Shown piece after piece: positions 5,778 to 62,866 of a stretch of 64,000 bases of DNA. The notes beneath the pieces were generated by a model. That model worked only from the letters and a program-made list of their open reading frames with translations, ran no database searches and was not told the DNA's origin. Within the stretch, counting starts at the first letter, position 1. Each line of letters opens with the position of its first letter. The stretch is taken from the NCBI GenBank assembly GCA_037443085.1, contig JBBIPA010000002.1, positions 13,739-77,738 of the forward strand, written 5' to 3'. Source of the DNA: Chloroflexota bacterium (GTDB taxonomy: Bacteria > Chloroflexota > Dehalococcoidia > GIF9 > UBA5629). A program made the position numbers and the translations under genes.

Positions 5778-6873
5778 AATAAATCACTGCAATTTGGCTA
5801 ACCATATGGAAAATCAACACAAAAACAATTTAATAATATGTAACGTTCATTTCTGGATTATCGTTCTTATGATAATGGGCATTACTCTGCTGTATTACGG
5901 ACGAAATCTTAATGTTGCTGACGGTTTCCCTTGGTTTGACGCAATAAGGATTTTGGAAATTGCCTATAGTGTTCACGGCAGTTTATTTACAATCCCGTTT
6001 ATTTATGCGGCTTTTGTTTTTGGCTGGCGGGAGGCTATTATAGTCTGGTCGATCTCCTTGTCGATTATATCGTTTAAGATCTTCAATCTTTCCTTTGGCC
6101 CTGCCCCATTAGTGCGCAATATTTTATCTTCGCTGATTCCTTTGTCTGTGGTTATTTTTTTAACTCTCGAACAAAATAGGAGAAAAAAAGAAAGAGAGAG
6201 CTTAAAAAAACGCGAGGATGAAAGAAGGTTGTATTTAGGTCAGGTGATTAAAGCACAGGAGGATGAGCGACATCGTATTGCACAGGAACTGCACGATGAC
6301 TTCTTACAGTCATTAATAGTCATTGCTAACCGTGCTCATAAACTAATGCTTAATAATGGCAGAGGTTCTGCCACGCATGCGGAGCAGGTTTGTTATATAA
6401 GGGATGAGGCCCTTCGGCTTTCCGAAGATTTACGGAGGTTAAGTCGTGATTTAAGACCTAGTATTTTGGATAATCGAGGATTAGTATCGGCTCTGAGAGA
6501 ACTGGCAGCTCGTTTTAATCAGGAATATGGAATCCATACAAATGTTATTACTGATTCATTATCTTCGAAGATCAATCCAGAAGCTGAGGTTATGTTATTT
6601 CGCATAATTCAAGAAGCCTTAAACAATGTTAGACGCCACGCAGAAGCCACTGAAGTTACAATTAGCGTGAAATGTCTTTCAAAACACCTAAAACTGATTG
6701 TGAAGGATAATGGTAAGGGCTTCGATATACCAAAACCAATTAGTCGTTTCACGATCGAAGGTAAGCTAGGGATCGCTGGAATGCGTGAAAGAGCCAAATA
6801 TCTGGGGGGTAATATTTCTATTACCTCTCAAAAAGGCAAGTATACCATACTAGAAGTTACTTGCCCGAAGTAA
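5737..6873 (+). CDS. Sensor histidine kinase (membrane domain, HisKA_3, HATPase_c)
   Basis: N-terminal TM helices, an H-box HRIAQELHDDFLQSL, and the C-terminal ATPase motifs NNVRRHAEA, DNGKGF and GIAGMRERAKYLGG. Confidence 0.8.
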   Translation: MLREVVLLALTLSKINHCNLANHMENQHKNNLIICNVHFWIIVLMIMGITLLYYGRNLNVADGFPWFDAIRILEIAYSVHGSLFTIPFIYAAFVFGWREAIIVWSISLSIISFKIFNLSFGPAPLVRNILSSLIPLSVVIFLTLEQNRRKKERESLKKREDERRLYLGQVIKAQEDERHRIAQELHDDFLQSLIVIANRAHKLMLNNGRGSATHAEQVCYIRDEALRLSEDLRRLSRDLRPSILDNRGLVSALRELAARFNQEYGIHTNVITDSLSSKINPEAEVMLFRIIQEALNNVRRHAEATEVTISVKCLSKHLKLIVKDNGKGFDIPKPISRFTIEGKLGIAGMRERAKYLGGNISITSQKGKYTILEVTCPK

Positions 6874-6964: not shown

Positions 6965-7435
6965 CTATGGGCGGGGCTTTTTGTCCACTTCCTGCAAGAC
7001 CATCTCCACGCATTTGGGGATGGCCTTTTTGACCTTGGTGGTGCAGTGTTCGCTGAAGGTGGTGACGTCGGCTACCTCGATGGCGAATATGACGATTTCT
7101 GCGGGCAATGATAGCCCCAGTTTGCGGCCAAGCGCAAGGGCGGAGGCGAAGTTGACGTTGTGGGTGGAGGCGGTGTGGCGGGTGACAGCCAGGTCATTGG
7201 AGTTGAGTCGGTAGACCTGCCCCGTTTTTCCCTTCCTGGTCTGGATAGCGTCGATGACGATGGCTTTGTGGTAACCAGCGAGCAAGTCCAGCAGACCCAG
7301 ACCTGCCAGGCTTGCCTCAGTCACCGTGATGTCTTTATGGTCGGCGAGGATTTTTTTAAGCTCTCTGGCAACGTAGATGCCCACACCGTCATCGCAGAGT
7401 ATCTCGTTGCCCAGCCCCAGAACCAGGGTTTTCAT
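6965..7435 (-). CDS. Hydrogenase maturation protease (HyaD/HycI/FrhD family)
   Basis: MKTLVLGLGNEILCDDGVGIYVAREL is typical of this family. The start is trimmed from the ORF-track 7579 to ATG 7435 because the longer ORF would run into mvhA, which ends at 7446. Confidence 0.8.
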   Translation of the reverse strand: MKTLVLGLGNEILCDDGVGIYVARELKKILADHKDITVTEASLAGLGLLDLLAGYHKAIVIDAIQTRKGKTGQVYRLNSNDLAVTRHTASTHNVNFASALALGRKLGLSLPAEIVIFAIEVADVTTFSEHCTTKVKKAIPKCVEMVLQEVDKKPRP

Positions 7436-7445
7436 GCGTAGCTTA

Positions 7446-8915
7446 TTATAAGTTCTGGGTGAGCCTTTTGACCACTTCGCCCTTGCTGTCGCGGATGATG
7501 ACCTCCATTGGAGCCTGTCCCGGCAGGGTATGCGTGGCGCAGCCGAAGCAGGGGTCATAGGGGCGCCAGGCCATCTCAATGCGGTTGAGCAGCCCTTCGG
7601 TGATTTCCTTGCCCGGCTTAATCATTTCCATGGCAGCTTTTTTGATGGACATATTAATAGGCGCTGCATTGTTGACCGTAGCCACGATAAGGTTGGCTTT
7701 CTTGATGACGCCGCGCTCGTCGGTTATGTAGTGGTGGGTGAGCGTGCCGCGAGGAGCTTCCACGATGCCTATGCCCTCGTCAGGTTTGGCTGTCGGGATG
7801 GTGCGAATGTCAGGGCTGGTTATTTCGGGGTCCTGGCTGAGCTCCAATAGTCTTTCGGCAGCATAGAGCAGCTCAACAAGGCGTGCCCAGTGAGTGGCTA
7901 GAGTCTGGTGGACAGGCTTGCCGCCCAGCGTAGAGTAGAACTTTTCATAGGCTTCCTGTGCCAGAGGCGTGGCCATACCGTCAGCGGCGTTCAGCCGGGA
8001 AAGAGGCGTGGACCGGAACAGGCCGCTGTCCTTGCCATCAACGAAGCCTTTCCAGCCGATCTTCTTGAGATAGGGGAATTTGATATAGGTCCAGGGCTCA
8101 ACATGCTCGGCAACATGCTCCAGGTATTCACGCGGCGAGTATTTGACGAACTCCTTGCCGTCAGGGTCAACCACTCTCACCTTGCCATCGTAGAAGTTGA
8201 CCTTGTTCTTATCATCAACCATGCCCATATAGTAGGTGCGATGGGTGTAGGCATCGCTGAGAATCATGTCCACATAGGCTTTGTTCTTGAGCACGATGTC
8301 GTCAAAGACTTTCAGGGAGAGCTTGGCGAACTCCACCGCGTCTTTTGCAGTCTGTTCCACCTCTTTTCTCTCTTCTTCGTTCAGCCCCTTGCTGATGCCG
8401 CCGGGCAGGCCGAAGACGGGGTGCACTGCTCTGCCGCCGAGCATCTGGATGATGCGGTGATTTTTCATCCGGGTGTTGATGACCGCTTTGCCCAGCTCCA
8501 GCCCCACCTTGGCGATCACGCCCAGTATATTGCGCTCGGCCACAGGGGCATCGGGACCCATGACAAAGTCGGGACCGCCGAGGATATAGAAGTGGGTGGT
8601 GTGGTCGGTCACATAGAAAGCGCTGTAGAACAGCTCGCGGAGCTTCCTGGCGGCGCTGGGTGGTTCGGCATGGAACAAGTCATCCAGCGCCTTGGTAGCA
8701 GCCATGTGGTGGGCTTCAGGGCACACGCCGCAGATGCGCTGGGTGATTTGAGGCATATCCTCAGCCAGACGCCCTTCGGCAAACTTCTCAAACCCGCGTA
8801 GCTCCGGTATCTGGAGGTAGGCATTATCCACCCCTCCAGCGTCGTTGAGGAAAATTTCTATCTTACCGTGACCCTCGAGACGGGTAATCGGGTCTATGGT
8901 TACTCTTTTTGTCAT
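7446..8915 (-). CDS. mvhA: [NiFe] hydrogenase large subunit, MvhA/VhuA type (group 3c). The C-terminal Ni ligands are cysteines, not selenocysteine.
   Basis: N-terminal RICGVCPEAHHMAA (RxCGxC) and C-terminal DPCFGCATH motifs, 489 aa. Confidence 0.9.
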   Translation of the reverse strand: MTKRVTIDPITRLEGHGKIEIFLNDAGGVDNAYLQIPELRGFEKFAEGRLAEDMPQITQRICGVCPEAHHMAATKALDDLFHAEPPSAARKLRELFYSAFYVTDHTTHFYILGGPDFVMGPDAPVAERNILGVIAKVGLELGKAVINTRMKNHRIIQMLGGRAVHPVFGLPGGISKGLNEEERKEVEQTAKDAVEFAKLSLKVFDDIVLKNKAYVDMILSDAYTHRTYYMGMVDDKNKVNFYDGKVRVVDPDGKEFVKYSPREYLEHVAEHVEPWTYIKFPYLKKIGWKGFVDGKDSGLFRSTPLSRLNAADGMATPLAQEAYEKFYSTLGGKPVHQTLATHWARLVELLYAAERLLELSQDPEITSPDIRTIPTAKPDEGIGIVEAPRGTLTHHYITDERGVIKKANLIVATVNNAAPINMSIKKAAMEMIKPGKEITEGLLNRIEMAWRPYDPCFGCATHTLPGQAPMEVIIRDSKGEVVKRLTQNL

Positions 8916-9883
8916 TTTATCCTCGCCCTCCTTAGTAACGAGTCAGGCAAACTGTAGCGGTAGAAGGTACCTACCGGGTCGGGGATATCGTCGACGATTT
9001 TTTGAATTTCATTTTTGTCGCTAGAATCGATGACCGAAGCTACGGCGCTGAGGAAATGGGCGCCCTGGTCAGTGACACCCTGTGCTGGTCCGTAGCAGCC
9101 GGTGCAGGGCATATTTGCCTGCGGGCAGGGTGCTCCACAGCCGCCCCGGGTAGCCAGCCCGGCACATAGCAATCCCTGCTCCAGGAGGCATATCTGCGGG
9201 TCGGTGGTAATTTCATATGTTCGGTAGAACTTCTTGACCTTTTTCACATCACGCTTTCGCTGGCAGTCATCGCAGACTGCCTTGGCATTGTGACTTATCA
9301 CCGCGCCCACCGGTGGTAACTTGCCCTCGATAAGCGCTTCCAGCGCCATCCAGGTGGTCTTTTCTTCCGGCGGGCAGCCGGGGATGATGTATTCCACAGG
9401 TACTGTTTGAGGTAGGCTTTTCACTGTGTCATAAAGCTCGGGAATAGTAAGCTCGCCCTCAGTCACCTGGTGCTTCGTCTGGGGAGTGACCTTATTGGGG
9501 TTATCGGTAGACTGCGTTTCCAGATACACCCGCTCGAAAATCGACTGCTTATCGAACAGGTTTGCCAGACCGGGAATACCGCCTACATAGGCGCAGGCGC
9601 CGTAGGCAATGAGCACTTTCGACTTTTCCCGGAGCAGTTTGGCCAAGTGCTCCTGCTCGGAAGTCCTGATGCCGCCGTTGAACAAGCAGACATCGATGCT
9701 CTTATCGGGCATAGCCTCGACGTCCTTGTACTTGACATCGATTGCTACAGGCCAGAACACGATATCGGCGACTTCAGCCAGCTTGAGCAGTTTCTCGCCG
9801 ATCTGGAGCTGTGCAATTTCACAACCGCCGCAGCTAGCCGCCCAGTAGAGAGCCAGTTTCAGCTTAGCCATGAGCACCTCCAT
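8912..9883 (-). CDS. mvhG: [NiFe] hydrogenase small subunit, MvhG type
   Basis: N-terminal LALYWAASCGGCEIA proximal-cluster motif and multiple Cys clusters. It overlaps the mvhA start. Confidence 0.85.
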   Translation of the reverse strand: MEVLMAKLKLALYWAASCGGCEIAQLQIGEKLLKLAEVADIVFWPVAIDVKYKDVEAMPDKSIDVCLFNGGIRTSEQEHLAKLLREKSKVLIAYGACAYVGGIPGLANLFDKQSIFERVYLETQSTDNPNKVTPQTKHQVTEGELTIPELYDTVKSLPQTVPVEYIIPGCPPEEKTTWMALEALIEGKLPPVGAVISHNAKAVCDDCQRKRDVKKVKKFYRTYEITTDPQICLLEQGLLCAGLATRGGCGAPCPQANMPCTGCYGPAQGVTDQGAHFLSAVASVIDSSDKNEIQKIVDDIPDPVGTFYRYSLPDSLLRRARIK

Positions 9884-10292
9884 TACCGCGGCTTAGACCT
9901 AGCGGTCCCAGTTCCCTGAGCTGCTCCGTCATCTCGTTGACGATGGCGGCGAATCGGTCGCCTTCAGAAGCTGAGACCCAGTCCAGCCTGACTCGTTTAT
10001 CTTCTATGCCGAACTGGTTAAGCATTTTCTTGAGCAGGGGTATCCGGCGGGCTGCTTTAACATTACCTTCAAGGTAATGACATTCGCCGGGATGTCAGCC
10101 GCAGACCAGTACGCCATCTGCTCCTTTTTCGAAGGCTTTGAGGATAAAGGTAGGCTCGACGCGGCCGCTACACATCACCCGCACCACGCGCATATTGGGG
10201 GCATATTTCTTGCGGGAGGTGCCTGCCAGGTCAGCGCCAGCATAGGAACACCAGTTACATAAGAATCCTACAATCTTCGGCTCGTAGCTCAT
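9864..10292 (-). CDS. mvhD: MvhD, the hydrogenase delta subunit that bridges Hdr, selenocysteine-containing. The in-frame TGA at 10095-10097 is read as Sec.
   Basis: ORF-track 10095..10397 ends ...GADGVLVCG at a TGA. The same frame continues [48 protein letters not shown]... to TAA at 9864-9866, rebuilding the conserved MvhD GC(U)HPGxCHY core. The start is at [17 protein letters not shown] (ATG 10292), and the plus-strand tcat at 10289-10292 gives an ATGA overlap with the hdrA stop. Confidence 0.8.
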
Positions 10293-12250
10293 ACTAAAGC
10301 TCCTTCTATCTGTGCCATAATCTGCTCGGTGGTGAAATGCCTGGTAATGATGGCAGCGCTGGGACAGGCGGCAGCGCAGGTGCCACAGCCTTTGCACAGC
10401 GCTTCGTTGATTACGGACACTTTTTTATTCTCATCAAAGGAAATGGCATTGTAAGAGCACATTCCAATACAGGTCTTGCACCCGGAGCAAAGCTCCTCCT
10501 GCACCACGGCGGTGGCAGCCTCGATTTCCACACTGCCCTTGCTGATTATGGAGAGTACTCGTGCTGCAGCTGCTGATGCCTGGGCGACGGTATCAGGAAT
10601 ATCCTTCGGTCCCTGGCAACAGCCGGCGATAAATACGCCGTCGGTGGTGGTAGCTATGGGGTCAAGCTTGGGATGCTTTTCCAGGAAGAAGCCATCTTTG
10701 CTTCTGCTGATGGAGAGCTGTCGGGCAACTTCAGCCACATCAGCCCTTGCCTCCAGTGCGGTGCTCAGCACCACCATGTCAACGGGGATGCGGCGCTGCT
10801 TGCCGAGCAAGGTGTCTTCACAGATAACCACCAGCTTTCCCTGCTCTTCAGGACTTTCGGCGGCGTCGGTAACCTCGGCAGCACGGCCGCGGATGAAATT
10901 GACACCTTCTTCCTGAAGTCGGTTGTAGAACTCTTCATAGCCTTTTCCGAAGCAGCGCAGGTCGATGTAGAGCTGGTAGATATCGGCATCGTGATTTTTT
11001 TCCCTGATAAGGTGGGAGAACTTGAGCGAATACATGCAGCAGACTCGGGAGCAGTACTCATGGTAGTTGCTGTCACGGCTGCCCACACAATGAAGGATAG
11101 CCACGCTCTTGGGCATCGAACCGTCTTTGCGCATTATCTTGCCTCCAGTGGGACCTGAGGCGCTGCTCATTCTTTCGAACTGAATGCCGCTGATGACATT
11201 GTCCAGCCGTCCGTAGCCGAACTGGGAGACAATGGTGGGGTCGAAGTTGTCGAAGCCGGTGGTGACGATGATGCAACCCACGTTCACCTCGACTGTTTTC
11301 TCCGTTTGCTCGAAATCGATAGCCTTGGCTTCACAGAACTTTTCACAGGCGCGGCATTTACCTTTGAGGAAGTAGGTGCAGTGCTCGCGGTCGATGACGG
11401 GCACATTGGGCACTGCCTGCGGGAAGGGGGTATAGATTACTTTCCTGGTGCCGACACCGCCGTCAAATTCGCTTGATGCCTTCATGGGGCATTTCTCCTG
11501 GCAGGTGCCACAGCCATTGCATTTGCTTTCATCTACATAGCGGGGCTTCTGTTTAATTTTAACCTTGAAATTACCCACGTATCCTGAAACATCCACGATT
11601 TCGCTATAAGTCATCAGCTCGATGTTTTTGTGTGACCTCACCGAGGCCATTTTCGGGGTGAGTATTCAGGCGCTACAGTCTAAAGTGGGAAAGGTCTTGT
11701 CCAGTTGCGCCATATGGCCACCGATGGAAGGCTCGCGCTCCACCAGAAACACCTTGTTACCGGAGTCGGCGATTTCCAGTGCTGCCTGGATACCAGCGAT
11801 GCCGGCGCCGACGATGAGGGTGTTGGCGTTTACCGGCACCTCTTTGGTTTCCAGCGGCTGATGGTAGTAGACGCGTCTTACTGCACCACTCACCGCTGAC
11901 TTGGCTTTCTCCGTGGCTGCTGCCTTGTCTTCGATGACCCAGGAACACTGCTCGCGGATGTTCGCCATTTCAAAGAAGTAGGGGTTCAAGCCGGCGCTGG
12001 CCAGGGCTTGTCGGAAGGTTTGCTCATGCAACCTGGGTGAGCATGAGGCAACCACCACACGGTTGATTCCCTGCTCCTTAATGTCGTTTTTTATCAGCTC
12101 TTGCCCCGGGTCGGAACACATAAATTTATATTCGCGGGCAAGGGCTACTGATGGTAGACCTTTGGCGAAATTAGTCACCTGCTCAACATCGACCGTGCCG
12201 GCGATGTTAGCGCCACAATGACAGATATAGACGCCTATTCTGGGCTCCAT
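10289..12250 (-). CDS. hdrA: Heterodisulfide reductase subunit A (HdrA, FAD and FeS flavoprotein), selenocysteine-containing. The in-frame TGA at 11666-11668 is read as Sec.
   Basis: ORF-track entries 11666..12313 and 10289..11650 share one frame and are separated only by TGA plus ILTPK. Joined they read ...[48 protein letters not shown]..., matching the conserved HdrA FPTxDCSxC(I/L)LxPKM segment with Sec at a Cys position. The start is at [13 protein letters not shown] (ATG 12250), which has an AAGGAGG RBS. Confidence 0.85.
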
Positions 12251-12264
12251 TCGCGCCTCCTTAA

Positions 12265-13143
12265 TTATTTGCTCAAATATCCAGCCAGGGCTTTTTGGGG
12301 TGAAACGATACATTTCCCCAGGCCTAAGTCTTTGCTTTCAATGCCGAATGCCACCCCCATGAGTTGAGTGAAGAATAATACGGGGATGTTGAATTTGGTG
12401 TTAAATTTGTTATTTACCTTGCTCTGGTAGACATCGAGGTTGGTCTGACAGAGCGGGCAAACAGTGACTATGCACTGAGCACCGTTGTTGGCAGCGCTGT
12501 TAAACAGTTTATGCAGCAAGCCCAGGGCAATATCTTCTTCAGATAAGATGAGCGACCCTCCGCAGCAGCGGGCTTTCAGGGGGAAGGGCACTGCCTCGGC
12601 TCCCAGGCTGGTAACTAAACCATCGAGTGATTTAGGAAATTCTGGGTGGTCGAAGCTGGGTCCCGGCCTGACAATCTGACAGCCATAGTATGGGGCTACC
12701 TTCAGCCCGCTGAGGTCTTTTTTCACCCGTGTCTTAACCTGCTCGGAGCCAATATCATTGACGAACACATCGAGGAGATGGCGCACCTTCACCGTGCCGT
12801 TATATTCCAGCTTGCCGGCTGCCAGTGCTTCTTTTACCTCACCTCTCAGTTCAGGATATTCTTTGAGGGCAGTGTTGGTTTTTATGAGGAGGACAAAGCA
12901 GGCGCTGCAGGGGGTGACCAGGTCAAAGCCTCTTTTCTCCGCCAGCGCCAGGTTGCGCGCTGAGCAGCAATAGGAAGCCAGTTCATCCACAGAAGAATAT
13001 GGCGTTGACCCGCAGCAGTTCCAATTCTCCAGCTCGATAAGTTCCACGTCCAGCGCTTTGGCCACGGCCTGGGCGGAACGGTCATAGGCCGTCGAGTTGC
13101 CATGGGCGGCAGAGCAGCCGGGAAAGTAGGTATAGTATTTCAT
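12265..13143 (-). CDS. hdrB: Heterodisulfide reductase subunit B (two CCG domains)
   Basis: Contains NWNCCGSTP and a second CCGGSL motif. 292 aa. Confidence 0.85.
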   Translation of the reverse strand: MKYYTYFPGCSAAHGNSTAYDRSAQAVAKALDVELIELENWNCCGSTPYSSVDELASYCCSARNLALAEKRGFDLVTPCSACFVLLIKTNTALKEYPELRGEVKEALAAGKLEYNGTVKVRHLLDVFVNDIGSEQVKTRVKKDLSGLKVAPYYGCQIVRPGPSFDHPEFPKSLDGLVTSLGAEAVPFPLKARCCGGSLILSEEDIALGLLHKLFNSAANNGAQCIVTVCPLCQTNLDVYQSKVNNKFNTKFNIPVLFFTQLMGVAFGIESKDLGLGKCIVSPQKALAGYLSK

Positions 13144-13721
13144 TATCGGGTTCCTCCTATTACGATGGCCTCAGCCTTGTCCAGGATGGCTTTAAGCTGG
13201 GCCTCTGCCTCCGGTTTCATTCTTTTGGCTTTGGGGGACAGTCGCCCGTGCCTCAGCAGGCTGAGTGCTTGAGGCAGCATCTTGATGGCGCGTAAGGGAT
13301 TGGTCAGCAGATAGTACCACGTCATGAAACCCATTTCCGGGACACTGCCGATGCTATAGACAAAGTCACTGAAGCTGCGATACATCTTCGGTGTGTAACT
13401 GCGCCCGCTGCTGACATTATTGCGCAATGCCAGGCATTCCAGCGTGTGCATCAGGTCTGTAGGCTTGATGCCCCGCGGACAGCGCACCGTGCACAGGTAA
13501 CAGGAGAGACAGAGCCAGGGTGAATGACTGGAGAGTACCTCGTCTCGCATGCCCGCCCGCGCCATGGCGATAAGTTGACGGGGCGTATAGTCCATCCTGG
13601 TGGCATTGGGACAGGATGCAGAACAGGTGCCACACTGGATGCAGAGCTTGACCACTTCACCGCCAGGGATGGCGCTGATTTCATTTACGAAATTAGTAGT
13701 GCCTTGCTTCTTTATTTCCAT
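13143..13721 (-). CDS. hdrC: Heterodisulfide reductase subunit C (two 4Fe-4S clusters)
   Basis: Carries the CIQCGTCSASCP and CLSCYLCTVRCP ferredoxin motifs. Its stop overlaps the hdrB start as TAATG. Confidence 0.85.
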   Translation of the reverse strand: MEIKKQGTTNFVNEISAIPGGEVVKLCIQCGTCSASCPNATRMDYTPRQLIAMARAGMRDEVLSSHSPWLCLSCYLCTVRCPRGIKPTDLMHTLECLALRNNVSSGRSYTPKMYRSFSDFVYSIGSVPEMGFMTWYYLLTNPLRAIKMLPQALSLLRHGRLSPKAKRMKPEAEAQLKAILDKAEAIVIGGTR

Positions 13722-13968: not shown

Positions 13969-14145
13969 TTATCGTCGGGCAAGCTCTTCTGCGCCTTTGA
14001 GCACCATCTCTCTTCGCTTCTGGCGCTGGCGTGCATCGCGCATCACCTGGAGCAGGCCGCTGACGTTCATATACCAGATGAACGCTATAGGGAAGGCGAT
14101 GATCATTATGCCTATGATGATCGCCACTATGAAGTACCAGGGCAT
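13969..14145 (-). CDS. Small single-TM protein (58 aa), a paralog of the 14173..14355 gene. It is below the 60 aa cut-off, so it is absent from the ORF track.
   Basis: Manual translation gives MPWYFIVAIIIGIMIIAFPIAFIWYMNVSGLLQVMRDARQRQKRREMVLKGAEELARR. An AAAGGAG RBS sits 8 nt upstream. Confidence 0.5.
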   Translation of the reverse strand: MPWYFIVAIIIGIMIIAFPIAFIWYMNVSGLLQVMRDARQRQKRREMVLKGAEELARR

Positions 14146-14172: not shown

Positions 14173-14355
14173 CTATTGAGTATTTCTCTCGGTTACCGCT
14201 GCCATTCTTTTCTGTTGCTCTCGGGCAGCCCGTCTCTTCCGCGCCTCGCGCACGGAGGCATAAATACCGCCGACGTTCAGGTACCAGATAAATGCCACCG
14301 GAAAGAGAATGATGGGTATGGCTATGATTAAAGCTACAATAAATTCCCAGTGCAT
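14173..14355 (-). CDS. Small single-TM protein (60 aa) with a basic C-terminal tail
   Basis: MHWEFIVALIIAIPIILFPVAFIWYLNVGGIYASVREARKRRAAREQQKRMAAVTERNTQ. A strong AAGGAGGTG RBS lies upstream, and the protein is about 50% identical to the adjacent small ORF. Confidence 0.55.
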   Translation of the reverse strand: MHWEFIVALIIAIPIILFPVAFIWYLNVGGIYASVREARKRRAAREQQKRMAAVTERNTQ

Positions 14356-61234: not shown

Positions 61235-61645
61235 TTAGAAGCGCAAATCCATGGCGCGGGGCGGACAGGCTTTGACACACAATTCGCATACCACGCACTT
61301 GGTATCGTCAAATTTTACTTTCCTGGTGCCCTTTTCAACAGTAAAAGCAGCGGTCGGACACAGGGTGATACAGGCACCGCAGTGAGTACATCTCGCCTCA
61401 TTGCGCACCACATCCTGGCTGAGCGACTGTATCTTCACCCCGGCATCGGTAAGATACTTCACACCTTTATCATAGTCCGCCTTTTTTCCAGTCAATTCCA
61501 TGATAAGAAGACCCTCTTCGCCAGGAGTAACCGAGGCCTTGAGTATATTGAAGTCCAGATTAAAATCTCTCACCAGATGACTCACTATCGGCTTGTCCAC
61601 CGAACGTGGTGGGAAATGCAATACTAATCTTCTGGAAACTGCCAT
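61235..61645 (-). CDS. NIL-domain 4Fe-4S ferredoxin, the partner protein in sulfide-dependent homocysteine biosynthesis
   Basis: N-terminal NIL domain plus CTHCGACITLCP and CVVCELCVKACP. Confidence 0.75.
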   Translation of the reverse strand: MAVSRRLVLHFPPRSVDKPIVSHLVRDFNLDFNILKASVTPGEEGLLIMELTGKKADYDKGVKYLTDAGVKIQSLSQDVVRNEARCTHCGACITLCPTAAFTVEKGTRKVKFDDTKCVVCELCVKACPPRAMDLRF

Positions 61646-61663
61646 CTGCTACCTCCTTCAATG

Positions 61664-62866
61664 CTATATAGGACGCTCCTGGAGCGGTTTGATTACCACA
61701 CCGGATTCCACTCCAGGCAAGGGCGCTACCATCTCTGTAAGCAAAAACTCACCGCTTTTTATCCATTGCTTTAGAGTAGCGGCGATCTCCACCGCTTTGG
61801 GGTAACTGGATAGCGATGCGGTGGGCACCTCTTTGCCCTGAACCATTATTTTACCACTTTTCAGTTCTGTATAGTTGACCTCGCCCAGAATATCCGGCTT
61901 CCGCTGGGGGTACGCCTCGGAATAATCGATAATAGGTGCATAGATGTCACTATCCGTTACCAGGGTGAACTTTAGTATTTCCTCCGAGAGAATGGGAATC
62001 GGGACACCGATGCCTACTGTTATGGTAGCTCCATAGCCGAGGAAGCTGGTACCTACCAGCCAATGCGGCTTCATCTGCTTAAGGTCGCCAATTACCGCCA
62101 GCGTGCCTCCCGGTCTCTTGGGGACGCCATTTTCTCCTCGAGGAACACCGGGATTATGCTGTGTGCCCTGCCAGGCAACATAGCCCACACCACCACCCAG
62201 AAATATCCTGGTGCCGACACCGATAGTTTTGTAACGCGGGTCATTGAGCAACGGGGAAAGCTGACCGGCGCTGCAAAAATTGGCATTAGCCAGCCTGGGC
62301 TTGAGCACACCCATATAGGTGTAAATAATGCGGTCGGACAGATTGACGGCGACACCATAGTTCTGATAGGCATTTCTGACATCGAACAGAACCGCCTCAT
62401 TAACCTCTTTAATGTTAATCAGCGTTTCCAGTTTCTTCCGGGGATAGCAGTCAGTCCCGTAAGCTGTCGCCACCAGCCGGATGTCCTTTCCTGCTACCAG
62501 TTCCTCGATGACATGGCCACCACCGTAGTTGAATTCGCCCGGATATATTCTGTTTCTGGGGTCATCGTCAGGTATGGCGGTCGCCCCCAGAAAGATATCC
62601 ACGGCAGCCAAGCCGGTATAGACCGGAACGTCGTTAAGGGTTACCTTGCCGCCACCAAGCTTGATTCTTGGCTTGGTATGCCCCACATTGAGATAGGCGC
62701 CCGAGCTGCACATCGGCCCGAAGGTACCGGTGGTCACCACATCAACCTCCTCAGCAGCCTTGCTGATGCCCTTCTTCTTGGCGATATTAATTATCTCTTC
62801 AGCAGTTACCACCACCGCCTTGCCTTTTTTAATTTTCTCGTTGATCTCGGCAATTGTCTTCGGCAT
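61664..62866 (-). CDS. DUF39 homocysteine biosynthesis protein (MA1821-like)
   Basis: DUF39 pattern (VVTTGTFGPMCSSGAYLN...), 400 aa, with a GGAGGTGA RBS. Confidence 0.8.
   Translation of the reverse strand: MPKTIAEINEKIKKGKAVVVTAEEIINIAKKKGISKAAEEVDVVTTGTFGPMCSSGAYLNVGHTKPRIKLGGGKVTLNDVPVYTGLAAVDIFLGATAIPDDDPRNRIYPGEFNYGGGHVIEELVAGKDIRLVATAYGTDCYPRKKLETLINIKEVNEAVLFDVRNAYQNYGVAVNLSDRIIYTYMGVLKPRLANANFCSAGQLSPLLNDPRYKTIGVGTRIFLGGGVGYVAWQGTQHNPGVPRGENGVPKRPGGTLAVIGDLKQMKPHWLVGTSFLGYGATITVGIGVPIPILSEEILKFTLVTDSDIYAPIIDYSEAYPQRKPDILGEVNYTELKSGKIMVQGKEVPTASLSSYPKAVEIAATLKQWIKSGEFLLTEMVAPLPGVESGVVIKPLQERPI

Follow-up and report, generated by a model that had tools for sequence, protein, structure and literature searches.

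A predicted selenocysteine codon in the mvhD gene of a hydrogenase-heterodisulfide reductase operon from Dehalococcoidales (Chloroflexota)

When a conserved bacterial gene is crossed by an in-frame UGA, is the gene broken, split into two products or read through, and, if it is read through, by which amino acid? The question is raised by mvhD in a 64,000-nucleotide stretch of contig JBBIPA010000002.1 from a Chloroflexota bacterium (GenBank assembly GCA_037443085.1), which we call the window throughout, meaning the whole stretch that was analysed. MvhD would serve as the small [2Fe-2S] electron-transfer subunit of the electron-bifurcating complex HdrABC-MvhAGD, where it joins the HdrA flavin to the [NiFe]-hydrogenase MvhAG. 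According to our analysis of the nucleotide sequence, mvhD is very probably an intact gene for a selenocysteine (Sec)-containing MvhD in a host belonging to Dehalococcoidales (Chloroflexota). The nearest representative genomes are metagenome-assembled genomes (MAGs) of Dehalococcoidales/Chloroflexota.

The interrupted frame and its product

The gene itself, its putative Sec codon, its ribosome-binding site and the gene that precedes it are placed as follows.

9864..10292, minus strand: mvhD coding sequence, from ATG 10292 through the putative Sec-UGA (codon 66) to TAA 9866-9864, with a 141-residue product (by translation)
10095..10097, minus strand: putative Sec-UGA of mvhD, residue 66, in the motif V-C-G-U-H-P-G-E-C-H-Y (by Cys/Sec alignment, recurrence in the clade and the published position)
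10300..10304, minus strand: Shine-Dalgarno sequence AGGAG, 7 nucleotides (nt) upstream of the mvhD ATG (read from the sequence)
10289..12250, minus strand: hdrA, with start MEPRIGVY at 12250, putative Sec-UGA 11668-11666 and stop TGA 10291-10289 (by translation)

The open reading frame (ORF) listed by the gene-finding track at 10095..10397 closes with ...GADGVLVCG at TGA 10097-10095, and the same frame runs on to TAA 9866-9864, as the first-pass annotation of this DNA had described. Read from the ATG at 10292-10290, the gene consists of 65 codons, the UGA at 10097-10095, 75 sense codons and the TAA. The start that had been claimed for it, together with an ATGA overlap with the end of hdrA, is indeed present in the sequence, the ATG at 10292-10290 overlapping the hdrA stop TGA at 10291-10289. 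The GTG at 10397, from which the listed ORF is counted as 100 amino acids (aa), was rejected as a spurious start; it lies inside hdrA, and the homologs start with MS[YF]EPKIVG. Pairs of frames separated by a single TGA were also listed across the window and judged by eye, and a conserved protein on both sides of the TGA was found only in hdrA and mvhD, the reading being confirmed by translation for the former and by a Pfam match for the latter.

The read-through product, with the UGA written as Cys, matches the Pfam family PF02662 (FlpD) over its whole length (positions 1-123 of 123, 191 bits against a cut-off of 22.3, E 8e-57). Taken separately, the N-terminal piece covers positions 1-59 of the profile and the C-terminal piece 61-123, and therefore the UGA stands at profile position 60. 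The frame beyond the UGA is thus homologous to the conserved second half of MvhD (PF02662 positions 61-123), as had been proposed. The MvhD/VhuD chains 8RVU_F, 7BKB_F, 9SW2_D and 5ODC_D of the PDB align with the product without gaps over residues 1-132 (E 1e-49 to 6e-51). With the NCBIfam model NF045873 (F420_non_VhuD) the score is 141.6 bits, below the cut-off of 215, so the product is to be taken as a bacterial MvhD and not as a member of the archaeal VhuD model.

In all 120 nearest full-length proteins the column of the UGA is Cys, within G-C-H-P-G-D/E-C-H-Y. Sec forms appear truncated in protein databases, which biases this protein set, and for that reason the survey was made at the DNA level, where the equivalent of codon 66 is TGC or TGT in each of 136 Cys-form genes. 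Both sets bear out the earlier proposal that the UGA was placed where MvhD homologs carry Cys. The conserved cysteines C12, C15, C41, C66 and C71 (window numbering) are invariant in the 120 homologs, position 66 being UGA in the window. In solved homologs MvhD binds a [2Fe-2S] cluster and passes electrons to HdrA (PMC6019823, PMC12350162). Our search of the literature for the MvhD cysteines that bind the [2Fe-2S] cluster found no assignment of them; residue 66 may be a cluster ligand, with selenium tuning the cluster, or may form a redox-active pair (a selenylsulfide) with the C15 equivalent.

Could the TGA stem from faulty sequencing or assembly, or could a recent mutation have inactivated mvhD and left a pseudogene? 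Gene callers do stop at this TGA, and a 65-aa stub is what they report: in MAG GCA_034432715.1 (contig DAOUAX010000079.1), whose proteins are identical to those of the window, mvhD is annotated in this form. The relatives' DNA that we surveyed comprised 80 loci from one genome per species and 80 metagenome loci. All seven nearest loci (L003-L009, Dehalococcoidales species representatives at 81-87% identity) have TGA at mvhD codon 66, and 11 further contigs among the 80 metagenome loci have it at the same codon, which brings the Sec clade to 18 other unique genes beyond the window, differing at many synonymous sites. Desulforudis sp. Tu-874 also has TGA at the mvhD codon, and the remaining species-representative loci have TGC or TGT. 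Assemblies of five independent datasets contain precisely the variant of the window, closed by the same TGA. Because the TGA recurs in the 18 unique clade genes and in the five assemblies, a sequencing error or a recent pseudogene is excluded. The argument that two adjacent Sec codons speak against sequencing error, already made in the first-pass annotation, holds as well, since a second UGA stands at the canonical Sec site of hdrA (in-frame TGA 11668-11666).

Selection on the downstream half points the same way. Between the window and the 18 unique Sec-clade genes, codons 67-131 give a ratio of nonsynonymous to synonymous substitution rates (dN/dS) of 0.04-0.17 at a dS of about 1-2, with synonymous sites near saturation, and the values are similar in the upstream half (0.02-0.06). 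Such strong purifying selection is not what a pseudogene would show, and we regard an error or inactivation as having a practically negligible probability.

A different proposal is that the UGA is a true stop and that MvhD is split, the 65-residue N-terminal fragment existing with or without a separately initiated C-terminal fragment. An in-frame ATG at 10025 (codon 90) does open a 53-aa ORF. However, codons 67-89 contain no ATG, GTG or TTG, show low dN/dS in most pairs and encode the invariant family residues H67, C71, H72, Y73, G76, N77, K79 and R83; they precede the first possible internal start and yet are conserved, and therefore they are translated by read-through only. No Shine-Dalgarno sequence is evident before ATG 10025, and the Cys-binding motif would be split in two. 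A split MvhD thus appears to us extremely improbable, and an intact mvhD decoded through its UGA is the reading with which we proceed.

A candidate SECIS hairpin and the decoding of the UGA

If the UGA is decoded as Sec, a selenocysteine insertion sequence (SECIS) is expected shortly after it within the coding sequence. Hairpins are found after the UGA codons of both mvhD and hdrA.

10061..10079, minus strand: candidate SECIS hairpin of mvhD, 5' arm CAUUACC 10079-10073, loop UUGAA 10072-10068, 3' arm GGUAAUG 10067-10061 (by folding and frozen synonymous sites)
11633..11649, minus strand: candidate SECIS hairpin of hdrA, UGGCCUC-GGU-GAGGUCA, 16 nt after the hdrA UGA (RNAalifold consensus)

The mvhD hairpin had been noticed before, at a distance of 12 nt after the UGA; the hairpin exists as described, and the distance needs correction, as it begins 15 nt after the UGA (spacer 10094-10080). 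Against dinucleotide-shuffled controls the fold of the 71-nt stretch has a z of -2.96. The bacterial SECIS (bSECIS) model has an upper stem of 4-16 base pairs (bp), an apical loop of 3-9 nt, a UGA-to-loop distance of 16-37 nt and a minimum free energy <= -7.5 kcal/mol (PMC13188914). In mvhD the stem has 7 bp, or 8 if the loop-closing U-A is included, which leaves 5 or 3 nt for the loop. From the UGA it is 22-23 nt to the start of this loop and 25 nt to its G 10070; the energy amounts to -7.8 kcal/mol. In stem, loop, spacing and energy the hairpin therefore agrees with the bSECIS geometry, as the proposal of a Sec codon had led one to expect.

The clade shows no variation in the mvhD stem and hence no covarying base pairs, and a synonymous-site test was used instead, on 19 unique clade genes and 70 codon columns with an invariant, degenerate amino acid. 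Synonymous diversity is zero in five of the 70 columns, namely the arm codons 72, 73, 76 and 77 (CAT TAC .. GGT AAT) and codon 65; for four of the five arm columns to fall among the five frozen columns, the hypergeometric P is 2.7e-5. The fifth arm codon, 74, has the next lowest diversity, tied with codon 41 at 0.10, and the other columns reach up to 0.76, mostly 0.3-0.7. Among the 136 Cys-form genes every synonymous codon is in use at the columns that are frozen in the Sec clade, and CATTAC..GGTAAT occurs in only four of these genes. Judged by these frozen sites, the mvhD hairpin is under RNA-level selection. Sec and Cys forms also differ in hairpin stability (Mann-Whitney P = 2e-4), which is weak evidence, the Sec forms being one clade.

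All 19 Sec-clade genes have GGC as codon 65 (10098-10100, minus strand), the Gly codon that directly precedes the UGA, whereas the Cys forms have GGT, GGC, GGG or GGA there. This uniformity suggests that the nucleotides ahead of the Sec codon are under selection as well.

The neighbouring hdrA offers a parallel case. That it carries a Sec codon of its own had been stated in the first-pass annotation, and the in-frame TGA at 11668-11666 does stand at the canonical Sec site, the Sec motif of the window HdrA being identical to that of the published Moorella HdrA selenoprotein. Public gene calls (locus L002) split hdrA into 194 + 453 aa. From nine sequences RNAalifold recovered the hdrA stem, with two compensatory pair changes in one relative (L095). 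In hdrA as in mvhD the distance from the UGA to the apical-loop G is 24-25 nt, a spacing to be expected were the two hairpins recognised by a single SelB. The codons hdrA-Sec and mvhD-Sec occur together in eight of the nine loci where both are readable.

From this analysis it would be logical to suggest the following course of decoding. When a ribosome reaches the UGA at codon 66, the hairpin 15 nt downstream would serve as a bacterial SECIS and recruit SelB-GTP-Sec-tRNA(Sec), the binding of SelB being predicted, and selenocysteine would be inserted in competition with release factor 2 (RF2). Decoding would then proceed through the H-P-G-E-C-H-Y half to the TAA at 9864. The hdrA gene, immediately upstream, would be decoded likewise, with its own UGA and its own hairpin. 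Selenium is accordingly presumed to be incorporated at codon 66, and sel genes are presumed to be present in the genome.

Several results weigh against this reading. The bSECIS loop has a G within its first two positions, usually as N1-G-[G/U]-N-N2 (PMC13188914). The window loop is UUGAA, unlike the UGGAN of all 18 relatives, which fit this pattern exactly; its G takes second place only when the closing U-A is assigned to the stem, and A, not G/U, then follows it. The local hairpin of several relatives is weaker, at -5.3 kcal/mol (33-nt segment), and the stem core AUUACC/GGUAAU (6 bp) is invariant in 17 of 17 aligned relatives. Searches of the 64-kb window and of 1.36 Mb of retrieved loci brought up none of tRNA-Sec, selA, selB and selD: tRNA scans of the window, of nine Sec-form loci and of the full 1.36 Mb showed no tRNA-Sec; the ten window ORFs of SelA/SelB/SelD size had no match in NCBIfam; and tblastn with E. 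coli SelA and SelD gave one marginal match only, in a Cys-form locus. An Rfam scan of the window likewise gave no hits, which we count on this side though it is probably uninformative. We know of no Rfam model for in-frame bacterial SECIS elements.

As a separate observation, the first loop G (of the loop at 10068-10072) is replaced by U in the window organism only.

Read-through of the UGA might also be achieved without Sec, by a near-cognate tRNA (Trp or Cys), by a suppressor tRNA or by a reassigned code. The failure to find Sec machinery in the window or in the retrieved loci speaks for this, and so does the nucleotide that follows the codon, UGA-C being a leaky stop context in E. coli. Against it, TGA ends 18 of the 63 long window ORFs, hdrA included; it is an ordinary stop there, and therefore the genetic code is not reassigned. 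A conserved hairpin at SECIS spacing, under RNA-level selection, would have no role in simple leakiness. The position is the catalogued Sec site of the family, and the class Dehalococcoidia is documented as rich in selenoproteins. On balance we consider insertion of another amino acid quite improbable, and selenocysteine remains the residue that we propose for codon 66.

How Sec came to be at this position may be partly read from the relatives. The protein is short and the neighbour-joining tree made from it is rough; in this tree the Sec forms of Dehalococcoidales make up one clade, with the Cys forms L010 and L086 nested inside it and the Cys-form Dehalococcoidales L012, L092 and L011 as its sisters. 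L011 (JAOAEN010000051.1, about 6060) has TGA in hdrA and TGC in mvhD, and its hairpin codons, CAC TAC CTT GAA GGT AAC, show only two synonymous differences from those of the window. L010, L011 and L086 look like Sec-to-Cys reversions with a decaying SECIS. These sequences suggest a lineage-specific origin of Sec followed by reversions to Cys, for which the neighbour-joining tree is too weak to give certainty; such a Sec/Cys reversion dynamic has already been reported for the FrhD/MvhD family (Zhang et al. 2006, PMC1794560).

The distant Firmicute Desulforudis sp. Tu-874 (L069, NZ_CP187479.1, about 6193-6240) has an unrelated hairpin, GCCACUA-UGU-UAGUGGC, 13 nt after its TGA, formed from the same C-H-Y-x-x-G codons. 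The Dehalococcoidales clade and Desulforudis may thus have built different SECIS elements in the same H-Y-x-x-G-N codons by convergent Cys-to-Sec conversion, a tentative idea to which we give somewhat less than an even chance.

The operon and its neighbours

The mvhD gene belongs to a cluster of the order hdrC-hdrB-hdrA-mvhD-mvhG-mvhA-hycI, all on the minus strand, with stops and starts overlapping or nearly abutting. Besides hdrA and mvhD it includes the following genes.

13143-13721, minus strand: hdrC, upstream in the same operon (by profile matches)
12265-13143, minus strand: hdrB, upstream in the same operon (by profile matches)
8912..9871, minus strand: mvhG, [NiFe]-hydrogenase small subunit (Pfam Oxidored_q6, NCBIfam VhuG-like, 319-aa call in L002)
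7446..8915, minus strand: mvhA, group 3c [NiFe]-hydrogenase large subunit, Cys form with C-terminal DPCFGCATH
6965..7435, minus strand: HycI-type hydrogenase maturation protease, last gene of the cluster (Pfam HycI, 156-aa call in L002)

Only HdrA and MvhD are predicted to contain Sec in this operon, MvhA being a Cys-type [NiFe] subunit. The overlaps are the ATGA of hdrA/mvhD (10289-10292), 8 nt between mvhD and mvhG, ATGGCTAA (9864-9871), and 4 nt between mvhG and mvhA (8912-8915); the ATG of mvhG at 9871, which makes the 8-nt overlap with the end of mvhD, has GGAGG 5 nt upstream. The overlapping stop and start codons suggest translational coupling, which premature termination at either UGA could interrupt.

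We may even suggest that the two UGA codons act as a selenium-dependent gate for the whole hydrogenase, an idea that we consider unlikely. Were it true, selenium shortage would cause termination at the hdrA UGA or at mvhD codon 66 and release ribosomes at least 230 nt before the next start, and the translation of the downstream Cys-type MvhG and MvhA would be uncoupled.

Just upstream of hdrC the minus strand carries a tandem pair of short paralogous ORFs, at 13969-14145 (58 aa) and 14173-14355 (60 aa). Both encode a single hydrophobic helix (..FIVA.II.I.II.FP.AFIWY.NV.G) together with a basic tail, and both are annotated as genes in public assemblies, though no Pfam family was found for them. 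At 61235-62866 (minus strand) there is a methanogenesis marker 16-like protein (TIGR03287-like, 127 bits, below the cut-off), adjoining a 136-aa ORF, in what is a bacterial genome.

The main value of these findings is a correction of annotation, and no new mechanism is revealed. The 90%-identity cluster of the stub (P0121, representative P0001) has 608 members, and 65-residue stubs make up nine of the 15 members listed. With so many other 65-aa stubs in the cluster, truncated records of this Sec form are widespread among the gene calls of public metagenomes, and metabolic reconstructions for subsurface and sediment communities systematically undercount the Hdr-Mvh complexes of Dehalococcoidales. 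This reading also adds, within the Chloroflexota, a lineage in which HdrA and MvhD both contain Sec. According to a recent review, hydrogenase-associated selenoproteins are confined to sulfate reducers and methanogens, and the Chloroflexota Sec-HdrA/MvhD pair qualifies this restriction. It would follow that these organisms need selenium for H2-linked electron bifurcation.

Comparison with known systems

The closest precedents on record are those of Zhang et al. 2006, whose additional file 4 (PMC1794560) lists 21 bacterial selenoproteins of the FrhD (= MvhD, PF02662) family, in which Sec stands either in C-x-x-U near residue 15 or in G-U-H-x-G-x-C-H-Y near residue 66. The second type, G-U-H-[PLEI]-G-[DE]-C-H-Y, comprises ten sequences, from Carboxydothermus hydrogenoformans, Moorella thermoacetica, Desulfotomaculum (two genes, D. 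reducens being named), Desulfotalea psychrophila, Syntrophobacter fumaroxidans (four genes, 2/3/5/8) and Syntrophomonas wolfei (PMC1794560). HdrA selenoproteins, with the motif DCSxU and [AS]-U-I at the Sec, are in the same list (PMC1794560). In an alignment to these MvhD selenoproteins, another line of evidence that the first-pass annotation had pointed to, the window Sec falls at the same residue as in the second type. The 2006 proteins share with the window gene the Pfam family, the Sec residue and its motif, usually a position beside a Sec-hdrA (DCSxU) and, as predicted for the window gene, decoding by the bacterial Sec system, whose SECIS stands within the coding sequence. They differ from it in being only 47-60% identical and in not being its nearest neighbours in the rough tree, and their hosts are Firmicutes or deltaproteobacteria, whereas that of the window belongs to Dehalococcoidales (Chloroflexota).

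Operons of the form hdrA-frhD-frhG-frhA that bear Sec are known from archaea and Deltaproteobacteria (PMC1794560), and Desulfobacterium autotrophicum HRM2 has four Sec-mvhD genes and a Sec-hdrA1 clustered with mvhA2DG (PMC2702500). The deltaproteobacterial operons (Syntrophobacter fumaroxidans, Desulfotalea psychrophila, D. autotrophicum; hdrA-frhD-frhG-frhA or hdrA1-mvhA2DG) share with the window the order hdrA-mvhD-mvhG-mvhA and the Sec in HdrA and MvhD. In them, however, the large subunit is often a selenoprotein and a Sec-GlpC gene is sometimes attached, whereas in the window MvhA is the Cys form (DPCFGC) and hdrC and hdrB stand before hdrA. In several archaeal operons, too, the large subunit is a selenoprotein, unlike in the window.

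The archaeal VhuD of Methanococcus, Methanocaldococcus, Methanopyrus and Lokiarchaeia is of the same family and is likewise a [2Fe-2S] connector, from hydrogenase or Fdh to HdrA. It has two Sec residues, a SECIS in the 3' untranslated region and archaeal machinery, in contrast to the one Sec and the in-frame bacterial hairpin of the window. The two archaeal Sec are described as '50 codons apart', with a CxxU motif (PMC4989117, PMC13188914); C15 and U66 of the window are 51 apart, and the window Sec presumably corresponds to the second archaeal VhuD Sec site. The Cys-type MvhD of Hdr complexes with known structure (5ODC chain D, 7BKB chain F, 8RVU chain F, 9SW2 chain D) shares all the conserved Cys positions and has Cys where the window has the Sec codon.

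At the level of the class, Dehalococcoidia MAGs with 49 and 46 selenoproteins stand in the BSepDB database among the bacteria richest in such proteins. The family, the position of Sec, the operon and the use of Sec by the class are all already on record.

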